A stretch of 62,637 nucleotides of DNA, the filler included, from Sphacelaria rigidula (lineage: Eukaryota), in NCBI GenBank assembly GCA_964200075.2. It is 11 parts of 11 records of this genome, joined end to end, with 100 filler letters (N's around TTAATTAATTAA, not from the genome) between each part and the next. Parts side by side here need not be neighbours in the genome. Positions count along the whole stretch, not along the records: positions 1 to 5,604 come from CAXNAA020025943.1; 10 more parts are not named here. One strand, given 5' to 3'. The notes under the pieces were generated by a model. It was given only the letters and a program-made list of their open reading frames with translations. It was not told the DNA's origin and did not search any database. Positions 4,300 through 62,637 of the stretch are shown here, piece by piece. Within the stretch, counting starts at the first letter, position 1; each line of letters begins with the position of its first letter. The translations under genes were made by a program, and so were the position numbers.

Positions 4300-4503
4300 C
4301 CGCCCTCCACGCGCGTCAGGGCTGCTCGTGAGCATCCGCACCACAGCCGCAACATCTGCATCCGCCTCGGCCTCCCTTTCCCGCCGGGTACGTGATTCCA
4401 CGTCTGAGAGGATCACCAAAGAGCGTAGTATTTCTCCAGCCTTTCCGCCTTCCACCGTACCAGGGCTGTTGACACCGCCGGAGCTGCCTCCCTCCGTGGC
4501 TGT
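4300..4503 (-). CDS. Internal exon, probably the same gene as 709-816 (TATEGG...AAVVRMLTSSPDARGGR)
   Basis: GCACAG acceptor, CGG|GTATGG donor, 204 nt, phase 0/0, open frame, coding-like GC content. Confidence 0.6.
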
Positions 4504-4703
4504 CTGTGCAGGTGGCGATACCAGAAAATAAAGCAACTCATTGGAGGCTGTCGTCCAGTTGTCGTCCAAATGCGAGATGATCAGTAGGCTTCGGGTCGAA
4601 CAATCTTAGCAGGGTGCAGGTCACCCTTCAGGCGACTCGCCGAACACACCACGGCGCTTCGTGCTTGGTAATTGAGTGCGAGCCTGGTCCGGCGAAACCC
4701 GGC

Positions 4704-4775
4704 GTGCTCCGTCGCGGCTTCGTAGGGATGCGAGGTCAGTGGTCTTACAACTATGGCATGCAAGATCATGAGTAC
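4704..4775 (+). mobile_element. Structured dispersed element, subfamily A, at the 3' end of a ~285-bp repeat (4496-4782)
   Basis: GTGCTC...GAGTAC followed by ACCACCCCCCC. The region 4496-4782 aligns by eye with 60582-60850. Confidence 0.85.
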
Positions 4776-4836
4776 ACCACCCCCCCGCGCGCCTGCAAGT
4801 CAGTTGGTGGTTGATCCCGGGTACGTTGTCGCTTAC

Positions 4837-5045: not shown

Positions 5046-5477
5046 CTGGAACAAGCAAATTCCACGACGAGACGGCTAAACGCTAGTAGGGTAGATGTGC
5101 GAGGGGCAAAGGAAGCGCGGCTAGCAAATGCGCGTGGCGCCAGTTTTGTTTGTAATTCTTCAACCGATGCTGTTGCCCTCGACGCCAGGGTAGAGCGCTG
5201 GGTGCCACATGTGCTGCCTGCTTGAAAATCTAGCCGTGCTTCACACTCCATGAGAGAAAAATCTGGGATACTACTGAGAACATGCTCACCGTAGTCAGGT
5301 CTGCTGAGAAGAAAGAATGTATATATTTCTCGTGTTGACCTCACTTCACATCATCGTGGGTACGGTAATCGCGTACTTCGTTGTTGTTTATTTTCGTCGC
5401 ACTTCTATAACCCCTCCACTTCCTCGGGAGGCGAATCCGTAGTCTCGAAGAAACCAGCTATCTCTCCCTCGGTACAT

Positions 5478-5543
5478 GTGCTCCGTCTCGAAAGGGATGC
5501 ATGGTCAATGGTCAAACGACCAAGGCAAGCAACAAATGAATAA
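5478..5543 (+). mobile_element. Structured dispersed element, subfamily B copy
   Basis: GTGCTC CGTCTC GAAA GGGATG CATGGTCAA TGGTC AAAC GACCA AGGCAAGCAACAAAT GAATAA, with a C-rich tract downstream. Confidence 0.85.
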
Positions 5544-5604
5544 GGGGCCCCAGCCTCCCCACCACCCCCCCCTCTTGAATTAGGGACTAACAGGGTAGAT
5601 GCAG

Positions 5605-8995: not shown

Positions 8996-10650
8996 AAAGG
9001 GTCAAAGGCACGTGTTGTACTCATCTACCATTGATGTAGAATGTAACATGTGTACGAGTTGAATTTGCGCGTGAAGTGTTCGATCACATGAGTCATCATT
9101 TTTGTTTGGATCGAGATCGAGTTTTTCGAAAATACTTCGATTCGTGCTTGTTTCTTTTTAATTTAATCATCACGCCCTGATCGCTCTGTAGTGAGACGGA
9201 GCGCAAGTGTGATGTTGGAGTGTTTTATGTTTGCCCTACTTTGGTTCTTATCTGTTCGAGACTTTGGTTTCTCCCTTCTCCATTGCAGACATGATATGAT
9301 CCCCTTGACTCTAGTAGGGGGTGTTATCTACCGTCATGAAAGTGCGGAACACGTCACGTAAGTATATGTGTTGATTCTCGCGTCTGCACTGTATCGTAAT
9401 AAGCTACACTGATCTGTAGAGTGTGGCACTCAACCAGTTTACCCTATTGGCCTGCATTGTACTGTACACGATCTTCCCCCCATTTGTTTTCCAGTCGGTC
9501 CCCCCGAAGAAGCAACGCAAGCACAGATGTTTGGGTACATGGCCTTTTGCATATAGGGGTGTTATATTCCGTCATCTACAGTAGAAGTTGAGCTTACATT
9601 TTTGACTCGAAGATTCATGTTGCAGGCTTGCAGTCGGATTATTTTTGTCAGCAATATATTGCCCTTCCCTTTTATCCCCTGTTCTTTCGATCACTGTTAT
9701 ACCCTGCCCATCTATGCAGTATTTTTCATTCATGTATGCCCCGAAGGTATGGCTGTGATTTCATATTTCGTCGTGTAGGGGTGTTATATTCCGTCATATA
9801 CGGTAGTTAAACTTACATTTCTGACTCGAGATGACTTCGACGGGAGATGTTGCGTTATACAGACATTACAGTAGTCGGTCCCATATTCCCGACATGTAGA
9901 ACTATTCGGTGAAGCACGCAATATGTTGCCTTGTGTCCACAACTACTTGTGTCCTAAACTGTATGGATTAACAGTCAGGACTTCAACTGATCGCGATATG
10001 GAGTACAGGAGGGCAAGGTCGCATTGGCTGGTGGTATGAGATGCGGTTGGTTTTGTGTTCTCAGACATTAAGCGCAAACGAAGCACGTTGAGCACGTCGA
10101 TTGCAAGCAAAAACGGAATTTCGAAGTGTTGTAATGAGTAGTTTCACGTAGTATTATCTCATGTTCAGCTACTTTCTGTATACTGTACTCCAGGCTGATT
10201 ACTGCTTGCATACCGTGCTGTATTACAGTCTGCTGTGTACTGGGGCATAATCGAAGTATCATGTGTACTGCAATGTTGGTACGCTTACGTTTCTGATGTT
10301 GTGGGCCAATGCGGGCCATTGACATTACTTTTGTTTTTTCGTTTCTACAGATTGTTTGTTGAGCATGCTCCCCTATCCCCCCGGCGTGATCGATCTTGGA
10401 TTCATAGGCATACTTTGGGAAGCCTTATGCATATACTGTTTGTAGAGCGTGCATGGTTCCCCGCATACAAACATGTAAAGGAAACACGTTGAGCAAGAAT
10501 GTACTGTTCGAAATGTCCATGCTTCCCCCGCGGGTTAATCAATAATTATTGCATCACAGTATTGTATAGCTTGACGAGCTTGTGTGATTTAAATTGGGTG
10601 CAATTGAATTCATTTAGTTGTGGTGAGCCAGTAAAATATAGTACTACTGC

Positions 10651-11538: not shown

Positions 11539-11590
11539 CCCCTATGAAGCCGGGACGGAGCACGCCGGGTTCTCGCCGGATCAGCCAGAA
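11539..11590 (-). mobile_element. Partial copy (5' half) of structured element subfamily A
   Basis: CCCTATGAAGCCGGGACGGAGCACGCCGGGTTCTCGCCGGA matches 143-183 and the reverse complement of 4687-4726. Confidence 0.7.
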
Positions 11591-12224
11591 CTGGTTTGGG
11601 GGGGGGGGGCTATCGTACAAAGTGACCATCATCCAATGCAACAGGTGCAGACAACTAATGTAGTAAGCTAGGCAATGTGTGTGCGTAGAATATGCACGCG
11701 AAGCCAACGAAACAGCGTAGCGGTTGGGTCTTAGGTAGAACTATATTTTCCACAAAGATACCAAAGTGGACGGGCAGGCTCGGCTGGCGTAATGTGGAAG
11801 ATGTACCGACATCATGTATTATCAGCGCTACTATGTGTACAGTATAATGCGGGACACGTACTGCAATCGTGTAGTGCCAAAAGAGTACGGCATTGGCGGC
11901 ACATGCGAAAGAAATCCTAGAATACAAAATATGAGAAACTCAAGATTGTGTATCTTCAAGGACAAAAACGGTCGCCGCAAAAATGATATCCGATGATGCA
12001 GCACAAGCGGAAACACAAGGGTGATAAACACAAACAAGATCAAATATATTGTTAGCAAGGTTGAGGAGCACTAAATACAACGTTACAGTTCACAAAAGCG
12101 AATTTGTCACCGCGGGAATGAAACCTTGCGGTGCACGGGCAGCGACGGCGTCGGTAAGTTGTGAAGTCGGACGCAAGGGTCGCCGCGGGGAAAAGCCCAA
12201 GAGCATAGCGGATGAGTGGCAATT

Positions 12225-35500: not shown

Positions 35501-35538
<38 letters not shown>

Positions 35539-38874: not shown

Positions 38875-39758
38875 TAGTTGTATTTGTCCCTTTATTGCCC
38901 ATCTGAGGAAGGAGTTTGACACCCAAGGCCGGAACAATGAAGGGCGGAATCGAACAGAATGAACAGGCATGGGCGCGAGGCTAGTAAGTAGCACCGCTTC
39001 TGAGAACCCCCCCCCTCTGAACAGGCCCCTGTCGGGGTTTCAGGTGAAGAGGCGGTACAAAACGCAAGGGAGTGGAAACAGGTTGCCACTCAGCCATGTG
39101 TACAGCAATTGCATAATGGGGGCATTACAAGGCAAGCTTTTTCAGCCGCCAAGTCAGCCGGAAGGATACACAAGCTTTGATACGGCAGACTTGAACAAGA
39201 ACAAAACAAGAGGAAGGGTAAAAAGAAAGTGACAAAACGATGGCGAAAAATATGAAAGAACAACACAAGTACTGGAACAGACATGAGGCACAAAGTCGTT
39301 GAGGTATTTTGTGGAGGACAATGTGGGATAGAGCGGTTTGGCCTTTTCTTGCCGGCTGCTTTGTTCTTAGTTTCGTTTAATTATTTTTCATCGGGACTGC
39401 GTTTCCTTTTTTTTCTTCCTTTCCCTTCCTTTCGTTTTCCGCTTTATTTTTGCTTTTGTTGTATTGGCTCTGTTTTCTCTTCCCCGTTCAATTCACTCGG
39501 TTCGTTCTCTTGTTTAGTTCTCCCCATTGCTCTCTTCCTTGGGTGTGTATTTCCTTTTCGTTTCACTTTCGGTGTGTCTGTTTTGTGATATCGATTTGAT
39601 CCCTTTGCGGAGGATCTATCAGCAGATGTGCGACAATCAATCAATTGGGTCAAAGGTATCGCTTCGTCATGCTCGAGGACGCACCGCCGATGCTCTAGCA
39701 AATAAGGCACGCCAAGCATGAGCACATGCCCCACATACCCCCCCCCTCTCCCCTCTCG

Positions 39759-39824
39759 GTGCTCCGTCTCGAAAGGGATGCGTGGTCAATGGTCAAACGA
39801 CTAAGGCAAGCAACAAATGAGTAC
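39759..39824 (+). mobile_element. Structured dispersed element, subfamily B (cleanest copy)
   Basis: GTGCTC CGTCTC GAAA GGGATG CGTGGTCAA TGGTC AAAC GACTA AGGCAAGCAACAAAT GAGTAC, at the contig end. Confidence 0.9.
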
Positions 39825-39925
39825 GNNNNNNNNNNNNNNNNNNNNNNNNNNNNNNNNNNNNNNNNNNNNTTAATTAATTAANNNNNNNNNNNNNNNNNNN
39901 NNNNNNNNNNNNNNNNNNNNNNNNN

Positions 39926-44116: not shown

Positions 44117-44485
44117 CTCTCTGCAGCACGGTCCTATACTGAGGCTACGGGGACCAGAAGGTCAGTGAACGCAAGTGTGACGGAGTCCATACAAAAATCA
44201 AGAGTTATATAATGCGTTATAATGTAGAGGGACTGCGAACAGTTGAAATTATTTTACTTGAAATCAGTGCATGCGTTATATAATTTGATCCGTACCTATG
44301 GACCCACCCCCTTTCCGCCCCTGGCTATACTAGGAGATAAATAGTGGCCAGAGGCGGCGAAACAGGACGGCGACAAGATATATGAAATGTTTTTCGTGTA
44401 ATGTATGGAAGAGACGTAATAAGCTATGGAAGAAACGTGAATGAGCGCCGGAATGTTGAGGGCGTCTCTACTAGGAGTAGGAACG

Positions 44486-44551
44486 GTGCTCCGTCTCGGA
44501 AGGGATGCGTGGTCAAAAGTCAAACAACTAAGGCAAGCAACAAATGATTAC
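44486..44551 (+). mobile_element. Structured dispersed element, subfamily B copy
   Basis: Same sequence with a GGAA loop, followed by GCCCCCTCCC. Confidence 0.85.
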
Positions 44552-45652
44552 GCCCCCTCCCTCGTTTCCACCGCGTGTTTTCTCTACGCTCTTCTTTTTT
44601 CACCCTGCCCGTCGCGCGCAAAAACTTCAAAAATGGATTTGTAGCCATCTGAGAACATAAATGCCGTGGACATATCGCACACGAGCTTATTACGACCACT
44701 TTGATTCGACCGCATGTTTTCGAGTCGATTTTTTTCTTAAACACACGGCAAAACTGTGCATCAGTGTTGAATATCGAATTAAAAAAAAAGTTCGATACGA
44801 TATTTTCAACGTATCGACCTCAAGACGTCGATACCGATATCTTCTTCGATACGCGGAAAACGACCCGATACGGCTTTTTTGGTGGGGACACAGCTTGCAA
44901 GACCTTACGGTACTACACTCACACTAGCAACCTAACCCGAAGTGGGTGTACGCCTGATTGTATGAAGGTACAGCAGCACCAGTATGTGATTTGAGATTTG
45001 TTATCTGACATTATGGAAGTGGAGGCACAGCACGCGGCGTGATGCTTCGGTTTGACAAAAATGGTTCATCGTGCAAGGGTGTGGTCGGTGTGGTTCGCAG
45101 CAAGTGGCTGTGTGGTGTGTGGTGTGTGGTGTGTGTGCAAGGGGCCTTACAGACTGGAATACGTTATTCACCGCCCCCAATNNNNNNNNNNGGGGGTGGG
45201 TGGGGGGGGGGGAGGGCGTGCGAAAACGGAAAAGTTGTCCCCCCCCCCCCCACCGCCCAAACACCCTTTTGGGGGGGGGGGGGGGGGGGGGGGGGGTAGC
45301 CCATTTTGGAGGGGTAGGTACCCCTCCCTCGATCAGATGGATAATGGCGATAGTGGGTTCTGTACTGTGCAAGACGTGGATGAACGGCTTTTCTCGGCTT
45401 GTGCCAGCCCTGTGTACAAGCTGTGTATGCTATGGCTGCACAGCAGGTGGTAGAGGTACGTCGAGCCTTGGCTGAGCACCGTCTGTATTTTCTGTGTCTG
45501 TGTCTGTGTTGTCGTCCCATCTGTTCTGNNNNNNNNNNNNNNNNNNNNNNNNNNNNNNNNNNNNNNNNNNNNTTAATTAATTAANNNNNNNNNNNNNNNN
45601 NNNNNNNNNNNNNNNNNNNNNNNNNNNNGTGTCTGTAACAAGAGGACGAACG

Positions 45653-45719
45653 GCGCCCCGGATGAAAAGGGATGCGAGGTCAATGGTCTTATGACTATGG
45701 CATGCATGATCATGAGTAC
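45653..45719 (+). mobile_element. Structured dispersed element, intermediate copy (short first loop, subfamily A 3' half)
   Basis: ...AAAAGGGATGCGAGGTCAATGGTCTTATGACTATGGCATGCATGATCATGAGTAC-ACCC. Confidence 0.8.
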
Positions 45720-45821: not shown

Positions 45822-46505
45822 CAGTTACGCTGTACAACTCACCTGGCCAGAATGTACATTGCTGAGTTATGCTGTATAACTCACCTGGCTAGAACGTGTA
45901 CCGCTGAGTTGTAGAGTATAACTCACCCTGCCAGAATATGCACCGCCGAGTTATGCTGTATAACTCACCTGGCTAGAATGTGTACCGCTGAGTTGAATAT
46001 TATAACTCACCCTGCCAGAATATGCACCGCCGAGTTATGCTGTATAACTCACTTGACCAAGATATGCATCGATGAGTTATCTTCTATAACTCACCCTGCC
46101 AGAATGTGCACCGCCGAGTTATACTGTATAACTCACTTGACCAAGATATGCATCGATGAGTTATCTTCTATAACTCACCCGGCCAAAATGTACACCGCCG
46201 GGTTATATTGTACAACTCACTTGACCAAGATATGCATCGATTAGTTATCTTCTATAACTCACCCGGCCAGAATGTGCACCGGCGGGTTATACTGTACAAC
46301 TCACTTGGCCAAGATATGCATCGATGAGTTCTAGTTTATAACTCACCCGGCGAGATTTTGCATCACTGAATTTTAGTTTATAACTCACCCTGACGGAATG
46401 TGCACAATGTGCACCGCTGAGTTTTGATTTATACCTCACCTGGTCAGATTTTGCATCACTGAGTTATGCTGTATATTTCACCCGGGCAGAATGGGCACCG
46501 CTGAG
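45822..46505. repeat. Minisatellite of 16 x 42-bp units, each with palindromic GAGTT-N9-AACTC
   Basis: Units start every 42 bp from 45822 to 46368, then at 46419 (after a 9-bp duplication) and 46461. The middle has an alternating 84-bp dimer structure. Confidence 0.95.
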
Positions 46506-51331: not shown

Positions 51332-51395
51332 ACTCATTTGTTGCTTGCCTTAGTCATTTGACCATTGACCACGCATCCCTTTTGAGACGGAGCAC
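51332..51395 (-). mobile_element. Structured dispersed element, subfamily B copy
   Basis: Reverse complement of 39759-39822 with loop AAAA, at the contig start, with a G-run nearby. Confidence 0.88.
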
Positions 51396-53497
51396 CTCAT
51401 AGGGGGGGGGGGATGAGATCGTATGCACCGTGCTTGATGGCATTTGGTCATGTGCTCTTTCTCAGTGTCTGGTGGGATACACTGTATGAACGTGGTCTTT
51501 GGTAGATACTAGGGTTGTTTGTTGGTACCAATATCGAACTGATACGATATGTTGATATCTTGTACAGTATCGTATGGGTAACTGTGGCACCGATATCGTT
51601 AGATTGCTATCACTCGCTATAACATGAGATGCATATTCGATATATACATATATATATATATATGTGTGTATTGGGCTTTATTCAAGGTATAATCACTCGA
51701 GTGTGATCGGGTTTGAGTGCCGTCGCCACGCACAAGCACTCTTCTTTTTTTTATACATCGTCGAATCCTTTCCACACACCACCCTGGTAGATACCGAGCA
51801 CTCTCGGGTACCCAGGGTATCGACTTCCGAAAATGCTTAGCATTCTGGGGTACCTGAGAAGAGTGCATCGTATTCTTAGCTCGCCACAGTTGGTTCCTGT
51901 ACTATGCTTCTTTCGATGACTGGCATATGAAATCTACACCAGCGAGAGTCCCTCATCAGCTAGGTGTGCTATCAAGGGAAATTGAAAAGCACACATCGTG
52001 TAGCTGCGAAGCATACATTCGGGATAAGTAGCGCAGGGCAGGCGCGTGCAATGGTCGTGAATAGAAACGGAGTCACAAAATGTCTCCACCGGCACACACG
52101 CACATATGAACACGAGTAGGATGCCTCCGCAATCCAAATGGTTGACACACCAGCCACCATCGTGGAACGCACGCAAAGTCAACGCGCTCTATGCGCCTTT
52201 GTTTTTTATTATCCTGATCCGCTGGTGGTCGGGGAGCGGCTTTCGCGCCGAGTGAGCCCTGACTCTTATTTTTTTTCCCCTCCCTTCAGCATTTTTTCGA
52301 TGCGAACTATGTTTTCAACGCCACTTACTTTTTGTTGTTGTTGGTGGTGGTGGTGGTGGTGCTGGTGCTGGTGGTGCTGGTGTTGCTCAGCGCAGGTGGC
52401 AACGTAGCATGCACTTGTAGAACAAAATGCGCACTCAGCCGGCGGCACAATTGACGATTTATTTTTCATGAGGCTTGAAGTGAACGGTGATAATGGCTCT
52501 TCGAAGAATTTATTCTCGGAACCTGATTTTTTTCATCCTATTAATTATTAATTGTGCTGTGACTCGGGGATCAGTCAATGTATCGCAACCAAACAACGAA
52601 ACAACCAATCAGACCGGTCATAATTCTACGTTATTATCGTATATATATATTAGAGACGTGAACCTTTTTGTCACGTCAACAAGATCGTTTGGCGCCAGCG
52701 GTAAACAGAGTGAAACCCGTTGCTGGGCTTCCAACGTCTCTTTTGATGTAATTTCCCCAACTGATGTTCTGAAGACGCTCGTGCTGTATCACTGAGCTGT
52801 CGCTTGCAATAACTGTCAACAGCTGTAACAAGGATATTCCTCTCGCGCTGTTATCCCGCTCATGTGTTCAGGGCACGCTATCCCGCCACGGCCACACCAT
52901 CTTGACGTTGCACTTCATGTTGGCATCTGGGTACATTCCGTCGATTCTAATGGTGAGCGAGAAACCTAGCTGGCACTTGTTGCACCGACTGCGAAGAAGA
53001 TAGAACTTGATACACAATTTTCTGTCACACGCGCCCGCGGTAGCAAGGATATTAGTCGGGGTATGGATAGAAGGAGAGGTAATTGTGATCATGATGGAAA
53101 GAGTGGCGATGGTTGTAACAGTAGCAGCAGCAGCAGCAGCAGCAGTGAAGGTGGTTGGCGGAGGTGTTGGTGGTGGTAGCAGTAATAGTAATAATGGGGG
53201 CGATCGACTGTCACATATGTATATGTGCGGACTGCTCTGGACCGCCCGCGTCGCAGTGGTTAATATTGACCTGTGGCCGACCTAATTATATGCTTATTAC
53301 CATTTCTCCCATCCCTTTCATTTTCCCTCTTATTCCACGAGAGTATCCAAGTGTAGCTGAGTGTATCTCTGACGATCTACTCCCCGTCTATCGCGCATAT
53401 TTCCATTGCAGCAAGTGTGATATCCTTCAATGCCCCCGCGCGCTCCTCTCCCTCCCCCATCTATGATTCTCGATTTTATAGAACACTCTTATTGGAG

Positions 53498-56426: not shown

Positions 56427-57095
56427 GTATGTGTGTATAGGCTGTAATGTGTTTGATGAATGGATGTATATGAGTGTGTGCATCGAGTTGCGCGTCTCGA
56501 CGTCTGTTGACTTGTACTCTGCGTGCCTGGCAAGGCAAGCACGATGATGAAACTTTTTTTTTCGTTTTTTTTCTGTTTTTTGTGTTGCTTTTTTGGTTGT
56601 AAGTAAGTGTACCTAAAATTTTGAAGTGAGCACGACGCCTGAAAAAAAGGTTATTGTGACCGTAGGCTCGCTCGTTTTCGCTGTGTGTGTGACATGCCCA
56701 TGGCTTGTTATGTTTTGTCTTGCTGTCATCACGAGTGCTTCTGCGAATTCTTAACTTCTTCGCGCTGAAGAACGGTCAAGGTTTGGAAAAGCGTGCAGTC
56801 TCTGACATACGGCGACTGAAGGCTACATTTGTTTTCTCATCTACTATTGTATGTATCTGTTGAGATTATTATTATTATTTCCGTCACATTAGCTCGATCT
56901 CTCGAACCCGTGGTCACAGAGTGCAAGGAGCATANNNNNNNNNNNNNNNNNNNNNNNNNNNNNNNNNNNNNNNNNNNNTTAATTAATTAANNNNNNNNNN
57001 NNNNNNNNNNNNNNNNNNNNNNNNNNNNNNNNNNCTCCCACCCCCCCCCCCCCTCCCCCCCACGATTTTTGTTTTTTTTTTTTTTGGAGAGGTCT

Positions 57096-57131
<36 letters not shown>

Positions 57132-60100: not shown

Positions 60101-60581
60101 AGCCCCCTTCTACACCCTCCCAACGACCGCTTGAACGACTCCACGGGGGCCCCTTTCTCCTACGTTGCGACTTCATGATTGAATTGACACATACGTATAT
60201 ATGTGGTGCACCAACACCGGAAAAAAATCATATCTGGCACGAAATAGAACTTCAAGTATTTGTCTCGCTGCTTGTCCGGATTCCATCAAAGCGTGTGCGC
60301 GTCTCTCATCAACACGGTCGCACTATCCTGCAAGACTAACGTCGAGAGATTGATCGAGGTTGAAGATCTTAGTACTGTATTGCTACTTGCTGCGTAGGCT
60401 AGGCATCCAGATTTCCGGGGGGAAAGGAGGGGGGGGGGGTCGCTAGCTTTTTTATGCGGTAACCATGACGGCGGTCGATTCAGATCATATTTCGCGGGAT
60501 GGAGAACCTCGACTCTGCGCAAAGGGAATGATAGTACGACGCAGTGTTTTAATGGTGCGACACCCATGAGGCAGTGTAGCC

Positions 60582-60850
60582 CGCGGCTGTCTCTGGAAGT
60601 GGCAATACCAAAAAATAAAGCAACTCATGCGCGACTGTCAACACCGTGTAAAATAATTAGTCCGCTTGCCAAAACATCTTAGCAAGATGCAGGTCACCCT
60701 TCATGCGATTCGCCGAACACATCACGGCGCTTCGCGCTTTGTGATTTCAAGCCTGTTCCGGCGAAAACGTGGCTTGCTTCGTTCCGCTTTTGTAGGGGTG
60801 CGAGGTCAATGATCCTATGACTACGATGTGCAAGATCATGAGCACGCCCC
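60582..60850 (+). mobile_element. Degenerate copy of the ~285-bp repeat ending in structured element subfamily A (60774-60845)
   Basis: Colinear with 4496-4782 (AAAATAAAGCAACTCA, TGCAGGTCACCCTTCA, CGCCGAACAC, CAAGATCATGAG.AC). Confidence 0.8.
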
Positions 60851-61027
60851 TCGTCTCCACGGGAGGGTGATTTGGATCGTCGTTTTCTTCTACCGATTCT
60901 CCTTATCGTGTAGGGGAGAGGAGGGGGGGGGGGGGGGGGGGGTGGAGGGAGGGGGTGCGGCGCGGCGTCCGGAAGCCGACACAGCAGCGGTCGCTGGGGC
61001 GNNNNNNNNNNGCCCGATTGTACTCTC

Positions 61028-61261
61028 CATGACCCTTTCTACGATAGCCCCCCCAAAACCAGCCCATACCGCGCCTGATGTTTGGGTTCAGGCTGCATGA
61101 AGCATCTCATATTGGCGACATTGGCTAGAACGAGCCCAACGGTGGGAAGTTCCAGCTGCTCGTTGTGTTCGCCATTTTCCATTTCGATTTACGTGAAGAT
61201 TTTGCGTCCCAAAACCATGCACTTTTTTTTTGGGGGGGGGCTATCGTAGAGAGTGTCCATG
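61028..61261. mobile_element. Small MITE with CTACGATAGCCCCCCC / GGGGGGGCTATCGTAG TIRs
   Basis: About 28-bp imperfect inverted ends. A matching right end lies near 11598-11630. Confidence 0.65.
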
Positions 61262-62123: not shown

Positions 62124-62637
62124 TATATGCCGCTTTCAATGTGTAGATGGAAGCTAAAAAAACAAATACTCAAAACTTATCTCGCGAGACTTCACGAGCC
62201 AGTCGTCTAACATTTCTCTGCGTGCATTTAGTTTGATTCAGAACACACAGGTTAAATCGTGAGCGAGCGGTTGGAGACAAAACGTAAGGGATCGAAAAAG
62301 AAGTTGTACCACGGCGTGCTTGGTCCTTTCGAGGGACCTGCAGTATACCTGCGGCAGCTGATCACAAGTATGAGACGAACATCAAAAGTGAGGGAACGAG
62401 CGCATGATACGGAACAGCAGCATAAATCGTATCGAGGGCTGTGACCACTTCATCTGGGGTTGTCGTTTGTCTCCCTGCCAAATTCAAAACCTCAATCATA
62501 GCGAATAGCAACGTCCTAGGCACCTGTCAAAGCGCGCGCGCGGGGGGGGGGGGGGGGGGGCGGGCCACACCACGGACGCGATGCTTGGGGGGGGGGGAGG
62601 GACGACCAGCGCCCAGCACCCCCCCACCGACCACCAC

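Follow-up and report, generated by a model that had tools for sequence, protein, structure and literature searches.

Stringent recognition of a 3' tail common to LINEs and SINEs has been described (PMC4176376, PMC3747384), and the RTE and CR1 clades predominate among the LINE/SINE pairs that share such a tail (PMC3747384, as far as its available text goes). Elements with comparable ends are on record from the brown alga Ectocarpus. In the portion of that work available, RTEX-1_Ec32 and RTEX-2_Ec32 are given as 'single EN-RT ORF; (C)n 3'', with a 'C-rich' TSD, while RTEX-N1_Ec32, a 607 bp element forming the most abundant family, has a '60 bp 3' end 83% RTEX-1/RTEX-2' and can occur in tandem (PMC12477816). 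RTEX-N2_Ec32, of 188 bp, has a 'similar 3' tail' (PMC12477816). The structure of the RNA is not discussed in the available text of that work, where 'secondary structure', 'stem-loop' and 'hairpin' have no occurrences.

The element considered here comes from Sphacelaria rigidula (assembly GCA_964200075.2). The whole stretch of DNA that was analysed, referred to as the window, is 62,637 nucleotides long and comprises 11 contig pieces of about 5.6 kb each, with N/TTAATTAATTAA spacers between them. With a probability of about four in five, the element is the 3'-terminal module of brown-alga-type RTE-X LINEs and of the non-autonomous elements that borrow it, and a probable handle for the reverse transcriptase.

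A dispersed module in two forms

The initial annotation described a dispersed candidate structured element at nine places, and the element is indeed present at all of them, as eight full copies and one partial copy in seven of the 11 contig pieces. Searching the window with a profile of the eight full copies brings back each of them, with E-values from 7e-26 to 7e-24. The same profile matches the partial copy at 11540-11583 on the minus strand (E 0.0037) and gives one weak extra match, at 39690-39731 (E 0.85). The 12-mer GTGCTCCGTCNC from the 5' end of the module, allowing up to one mismatch, occurs eight times in the window against 0.85 expected, and a count of eight was reached in none of 100 shuffles; one of these occurrences, at 9193-9204, is not a copy of the element.

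The division into two subfamilies with conserved blocks was also correctly seen. Form B is 66 nt long (the copies starting at 5478, 39759, 44486 and 51332) and form A is 72 nt long (those at 95, 4704 and 60774); a first loop of GAAA, GGAA or AAAA stands against a 9-nt insert in form A, and AAAY against TTAT. The split accommodates most copies, the exception being the one at 45653-45719, which is a hybrid with a degenerate second stem. This copy lies at the start of a contig (45629-45719, plus strand) and joins B-like upstream sequence resembling the LINE described below, together with a short first loop, to an A-like 3' half. It is 76.8% identical to the LINE over 95 nt, 92.7% identical to the A copy at 4724-4778, and 56% identical over 25 amino acids to P0001, an Ectocarpus relative of the LINE protein. 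This suggests recombination or template switching between A and B, or a third lineage; a search of the window with the Ectocarpus relatives (tblastn) found no third lineage there.

The partial copy had been placed at 11539-11563. It is real and longer than this, reaching over 11540-11608 on the minus strand, where it retains an A-specific upstream part and the first 27 nt or so of the module. The 3' part is missing, the similarity amounts to a 62-nt match at 82%, and a C12 run lies at the 5' end (the whole feature spanning 11540-11609).

Three ends of contig pieces (39825, 45629 and 51332) fall inside a copy or within 25 nt of one. This suggests that the assembly breaks at a high-copy repeat or at its homopolymer tail.

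The 3' end of a LINE and a non-coding partner

Pattern scans of public collections found form B on four further contigs (L041/L064, L062, L063 and L065), and in all four there is coding sequence directly upstream. An ORF for reverse transcriptase and endonuclease, which it had been proposed to look for 5' of the copies, is present outside the window: L064 encodes 1382 amino acids with an Exo_endo_phos domain (8.1e-11) and an RVT_1 domain (6.7e-32), and the reading frame ends inside the module. The ORF ends in ...NGAPSRKGCVVNGQMTKASNK*, to which the module contributes two bases of a Gly codon, 19 codons and a TGA at nt 60-62; after these come only GTAC and a C13 run. Because the stop codon is placed here and only four nucleotides separate it from the C-run, the module lies at the very 3' terminus of a non-LTR retrotransposon that has hardly any 3' UTR. 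The same succession of ORF end, module and C tail is found in L062, L063 and L065.

Two of these contigs, L064 (G001:C43) and L065, sit in bacterial MAGs and are eukaryote-derived contaminants of public bins; L041/L064 is the lone eukaryote-like contig of its bin, with one real match in the whole bin. A scan of genome_contigs with a 20-mer of the module gave 57 matches (L001-L057), of which only L041 is real. The other 56 fall in a widely conserved coding motif of bacteria, ...V-M-G-C-V-V-N-G-P-G-E... (...ATGGGATGCGTGGTCAATGGTCCNGG), which we take to be that of IspG/GcpE. These 56 matches, in as many unrelated bacterial genomes and in the same reading frame as in the LINE (GCVVNG), were rejected as coincidence; such an identity can mislead k-mer-based searches. 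A 23-mer returned two loci, as did a scan of the metagenomes, and a gapped pattern gave 60 matches, about the chance estimate, with only the known contig real by nhmmer. An A-specific 21-mer had no match in genome_contigs or viral_contigs. With the C-terminus of the ORF as query, four loci were found in genome_contigs, none with a new 3' end, and none in viral_contigs.

Three of the four B copies in the window begin, in blastn alignments to the LINE, 0-2 nt from the first base of the module. At 5478-5572 (plus strand; module 5478-5543, then a C-rich tail up to a C8 run at 5565-5572), the alignment starts at LINE nt 5086, which is the first module base itself. The copy at 39738-39825 (plus strand; module 39759-39824, with a C9 run and a C-rich spacer before it) is 98.6% identical to the LINE 3' end from LINE nt 5084, and its contig piece stops 1 nt past the module. 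The third, at 51332-51412 (minus strand), has a module cut by the contig end (51332-51395), is 98.5% identical to the LINE from LINE nt 5085, and has ahead of it TATGAG and a C11 run, the latter being the tail of another repeat end. The fourth B copy, at 44321-44561 (plus strand; module 44486-44551, then G and a C-rich tail), includes about 165 nt of the 3' end of the LINE ORF. It matches ORF residues 1316-1382 in tblastn and the LINE nucleotide sequence at 77% over 238 nt in blastn, and gives the same matches with the relatives P0001-P0003. The LINE body retained is thus 0, 0, 0 and about 165 nt in the B copies, and the body retained in A copies is about 24, about 35 (the partial copy) and at least 210 nt. 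The copies, which are 5'-truncated dead insertions, share their 3' end and differ at their 5' end. No Pfam family was found above the cut-off on the 53 ORFs of the window, and the window is therefore without an intact LINE ORF.

In subfamily A the module forms the 3' end of a non-coding repeat that measures at least 270 nt, with stop codons upstream in all three frames. One copy, at 4494-4786 on the plus strand, consists of a non-coding body (4494-4703), the module (4704-4775, profile E 1.3e-24), and ACCA with a C7 tail (C-run 4780-4786). A diverged copy at 60581-60858 on the plus strand has the same design, with its module at 60774-60845 (E 6.8e-24) and a short C-rich tail; 4494-4778 and 60581-60848 are 74% identical over 286 nt. 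The copy at 69-209 on the minus strand is truncated about 24 nt upstream of its module (95-166, E 6.9e-26), carries a C19 tail (a G-run at 69-87 on the plus strand), and has a C13 run (197-209) directly 5' of the truncation point. Compared with the LINE, the A repeat is alike only from GTGCTCC onward, that is, from the start of the module, and its body is unrelated; homology between A and B begins exactly at the module. Sharing of the module only, together with a non-coding body, supports the view that subfamily A is a non-autonomous partner that borrows the 3' end of the LINE.

The closest named proteins to that encoded by the LINE are unnamed products of Ectocarpus, with 70-73% identity over the last 383 amino acids; at 87% and 73%, two unnamed ENA proteins are at least as similar. 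The Ectocarpus relatives share the C-terminal peptide, ending in ...NGAPSRKGRV(V/A)NGQMT(K/T)ASNK, and even when identity drops to 44-50% relatives have the ending ...APSSRG(R/H)VVNGLTAK. The persistence of this peptide, given that the module encodes the C-terminal 20 residues, favours an alternative explanation. The module, although a LINE 3' end, would have no structural role as RNA: its conservation would reflect protein coding and recent capture by subfamily A, and the stems would be incidental. However, A keeps the nucleotides in a non-coding context. Owing to indels of +5 and +1, the conserved middle of the module falls into one reading frame in A and into another in B, so that conservation there is at the nucleotide level. 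Furthermore, non-autonomous partners that keep exactly this stretch are, in the published text available, a hallmark of recognition by the reverse transcriptase (PMC12477816, PMC3747384). Part of the conservation of the B module among LINE lineages may nevertheless be at the level of the protein, as this module is also coding.

Predicted fold of the module RNA

For a single B copy, the predicted minimum free energy structure is a closed three-way junction. P1 is predicted to pair nt 1-6 with 61-66, and P2 to pair 7/8-12 with 17-21/22 under a GAAA loop, which in form B is of the GNRA type. P3 is predicted as a long hairpin with interruptions, in which 27-29/47-49 and 22-23/52-53 extend the pairs 32-36/41-45. 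Conceivably, the GAAA loop of form B could dock into the CUAAG/AUGG strands of P3, which bear a mere likeness, in an imperfect register, to GNRA tetraloop receptors; form A has neither the GAAA loop nor the CUAAG/AUGG strands.

The predicted fold is a property of the sense strand, which argues against incidental stems. The antisense strand does not fold, since five pairs of the B fold are G.U, and antisense copies have z-scores of -0.34 and +1.98 in single-sequence folding. RNAalifold on three A and three B copies gives the three-way junction at -9.06, against -4.62 for the antisense alignment; column shuffles give -4.07 +/- 2.03 and reach the observed energy once in 300. Single sequences fold only weakly better than their shuffles, with z-scores from -0.86 to -1.84 for six sense copies and +0.74 for copy 44486, and these weak scores favour a module that has no structural role.

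The differences between the A and B consensus sequences also bear on this question. They affect one of 42 paired and 17 of 30 unpaired columns (Fisher p 1e-7), or one of 42 against 11 of 24 when indel columns are excluded (p 2e-5), counted on a scripted alignment since MAFFT puts the A insert wrongly at the 5' end. The paired columns were defined by the predicted fold of B only, so their avoidance by A/B differences again speaks against a module with no structural role. The single difference in a paired column turns U.G into C-G and retains the pair. For the three stems of the initial annotation taken by themselves, the counts are 1/34 and 11/32 (p 0.001). In the copy at 60774, pairing is kept at four of five stem substitutions. 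Private substitutions of individual copies are equally frequent in both classes of column (22 in 34 paired, 22 in 38 unpaired). This is expected because the copies are dead, and it lends the fold no support.

Changes that keep a pair are one-sided, and no double compensatory change is found in the A/B alignment, which spans two or three lineages; this, too, counts towards a module without structural role. Conservation of the stems between A and B would look alike under sequence-specific recognition or plain recent capture. In addition, the claim that the same stems carry swapped loops is one of two readings, because the A insert can pair with the next linker. It does so over 9 bp in two copies (RNAfold) and at 8 of 9 positions in the third (counted by hand), and RNAfold prefers this competing hairpin in subfamily A. 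The three-way junction is a plausible model, given folding on the sense strand only and A/B differences that avoid the stems. Weighing both sides, we consider it unlikely that the module lacks a structural role. The proposal of a 3' structure by which a non-LTR retrotransposon or SINE is recognised is supported as regards the LINE 3' terminus, found at four of four loci outside the window; that the module folds as RNA is plausible, with no double compensatory change seen.

Copy shape, C tails and relation to known systems

The abundance of the module was examined in Logan contigs of four runs of the source organism, aligned to a LINE end (L067:2100-2668) in which the module occupies 2495-2560 and the tail extends to 2574. 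In three DNA-type runs, 66,934, 39,759 and 76,215 contig pieces align, and the fourth run contributes 3,339. Contig depth, to be distinguished from copy number, sums to 1.0-1.4e7 in the bins of the module (two runs), to 2.8e6 in the region 20-35 nt upstream and to nearly zero past the tail, whereas the depth of long contigs from the same run is about 25-30. Depth falls about 4-fold just upstream of the module and by about 10% within it, the upstream values being lowered by clipping of alignments in diverged LINE sequence (loose ends at 2463). In each DNA-type run, 316-380 contigs have poly-C directly before the module start. Many joints lead from 2568-2574 back to 2494-2498 ('goes back 75-79'), which corresponds to a module, its C tail and the next module. 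Among the variants listed (23 more exist), one lies within the module at 5% or more, a T/C in the P3 loop. The commonest form is the bare 66-nt module with a C tail, mostly without the LINE body, situated between C-runs and often head-to-tail.

Copies have a preferred 5' limit at the first base of the module. This sharp limit could possibly reflect the behaviour of the RT or RNP at the base of P1, a trimming back of RNA that is not protected, or the production of a discrete small RNA. In the last case, the 66-nt unit would arise by self-cleavage or through host processing at the P1 base, or else be transcribed from a promoter of its own, and it would spread as an independent mini-retroposon instead of being a product of truncation. 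The near-exact starts of three of the four B copies of the window, the poly-C that meets the module start in the sequencing runs, the joints that return to it and the step in depth are all in keeping with this. On the other side, the A copies are truncated at various points, RT or RNP behaviour could also give the step, and clipping in the diverged LINE affects the upstream depth. No tRNA likeness was found in the window (ARAGORN, 0 genes), and no T-run terminator after the module. The comparison with Rfam that had been called for identified no family at any copy: the window has no match at the gathering score, and none of 58 matches at E<=10 overlaps a copy. Those sub-threshold matches are hairpins of C-runs and G-runs elsewhere in the window. 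The earlier suggestion of a ribozyme or other ncRNA is thus unsupported, and a discrete small RNA is a very improbable source of the copies.

Further identities were considered for the element and rejected. A tRNA-derived SINE would have a tRNA-like head or cloverleaf, and ARAGORN detects none in the window. Threading by hand on HDV-like, hammerhead and cloverleaf topologies gave no fit.

A C-run or C-rich tail follows the module in all six window copies with a 3' flank present (weakly in the one at 45653) and in L062-L065, and a run of C9-C13 lies just 5' of the truncation point in four copies (95, 11540, 39759 and 51332). Counting runs of 7 nt or more, the window has 17 of C and 15 of G (32 together). 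The flanks of the copies are homopolymeric, and TSDs proper cannot be delimited there. Two copies provide examples of nesting: the C tail of a different repeat end stands ahead of the one at 51332, and an apparent older, degenerate module end ahead of the one at 39759. This module end, at 39690-39746 on the plus strand, resembles the 3' half of a diverged module (nhmmer E 0.85), ends in ...CATGAGCAC and has a C-rich tail of its own; together with copy 39759 it would be a nested or head-to-tail insertion.

Other C-tailed sequences are present in the window. A second repeat end, '...TACGATAG' with a C7-C12 run, occurs three times, at 11587-11609 (minus), 61036-61054 (plus) and 61220-61240 (minus), and a similar end, '...TACGATCTCAT' with C11 (51402-51430, minus), adjoins the module-only copy at 51332-51395 on its 5' side. 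These ends probably belong to other C-tailed retroposon families, whose tails act as landing sites. Very long C- or G-runs of 13-37 nt are found at 45202-45296, 57041-57130, 35502-35538, 60923-60942 and 62542-62597. Some inverted pairs of C-run and G-run fold as perfect hairpins, leading to spurious sub-threshold matches to miRNA and snoRNA families of Rfam. Downstream of copy 45653, a tandem array with a period of about 84 nt (45832-46505, plus strand) appears as a ladder of blastn self-matches.

The head-to-tail arrays of module and C-run could in principle be a satellite that expands at the DNA level by unequal exchange or replication slippage and is merely LINE-derived at its start. Many tandem joints are seen in all three DNA-type runs, and RTEX-N1 is described as able to occur in tandem in the available text of PMC12477816. 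However, the window copies are dispersed single units, in seven of 11 contig pieces, and the C-runs and inserted letters between units vary, as they would for separate insertions into tails. A satellite origin is therefore scarcely credible.

Under the preferred reading, a borrowed LINE 3' terminus recognised by the reverse transcriptase, the sense RNA would fold into the closed three-way junction, with P1 joining its ends, P2 bearing a GNRA-type loop (in B) and P3 as an interrupted hairpin. The element's own protein would bind the junction, by analogy with the 'stringent' 3' recognition described elsewhere (PMC4176376 and PMC3747384, in the text available). The C tail might then anneal to a nicked G-rich/C-rich target and prime reverse transcription there, perhaps with slippage. 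Fresh copies would carry fresh C tails and hence offer further targets, giving rise to flanks rich in C, to nested insertions and to tandems. A 5' end so sharply set at the base of P1 would indicate that nothing smaller than the bound, folded module is copied or survives. It is tempting to speculate that the bare module with its predicted three-way junction and C tail is itself a self-sufficient minimal retroposon, its RNA acquiring a defined 5' end at the base of P1 by processing or protein protection, and its copies reaching very high numbers in this alga through insertion into the C tails of earlier ones. We regard this as rather unlikely. To our knowledge, a 66-nt retroposon would be shorter than any SINE described.

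An element of this kind explains a very abundant repeat in an algal genome, and with it many poly-C and poly-G tracts and assembly breaks, as footprints of C-tailed RTE-X retroposons. For annotation, we recommend masking the copies as LINE/RTE-X tails instead of calling them ncRNA genes. If the model is correct, a compact and sharply bounded RNA of 66 nt is the likely handle for template choice by these reverse transcriptases. The module is also a convenient substrate for work on binding, structure and mobility in a lineage where mechanisms of retrotransposition are unstudied.

Similar to the self-cleaving ribozymes linked to retroelements (HDV-like, hammerhead and others), the module is small, has several predicted helices, is associated with a retrotransposon and is sharply delimited at the 5' end of its mini-copies. 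Unlike these, it lies at the 3' end of its element rather than the 5' end, and it has no Rfam match at E<=10.

The likeness to stringent LINE/SINE pairs such as eel UnaL2/UnaSINE1 and zebrafish ZfL2 is closer (PMC1636434, PMC4176376, PMC3747384; as described in the text available). In both, a conserved 3' terminus of 60-100 nt with a predicted stem-loop is found on the LINE and its non-autonomous partners, and is followed by a short-repeat tail with a presumed role in template slippage or priming. In contrast to these pairs, where the tail is in the 3' UTR, the module overlaps the end of the ORF and its stop codon, and instead of a single hairpin with (TGTAA)n and the like there is a predicted three-way junction and a homopolymer C tail.

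The RTE-X and RTEX-N elements of Ectocarpus provide the best match (PMC12477816). In the description available, they have a single EN-RT ORF (in an element of 5.5-5.9 kb, compared with at least 5.1 kb here), a (C)n 3' tail with C-rich flanks or TSD and tandems, a 3' end of about 60 bp common to autonomous and non-autonomous elements, and non-autonomous forms at very high copy number. One difference is that the commonest form in Sphacelaria, a different host genome, is the bare 66-nt module with its tail, and not an element of 188 or 607 bp. All features found here fit the Ectocarpus elements, compared by description rather than by consensus sequence, and membership of the RTE-X clade is proposed from this match and from the Ectocarpus relatives of the protein rather than from an RT phylogeny. 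On the features tested, the module belongs with the shared tails of stringent LINE/SINE pairs, and specifically with the C-tailed RTE-X/RTEX-N as in Ectocarpus. This is a kind of element already on record, to which the bare-module form and the structural model are additions.
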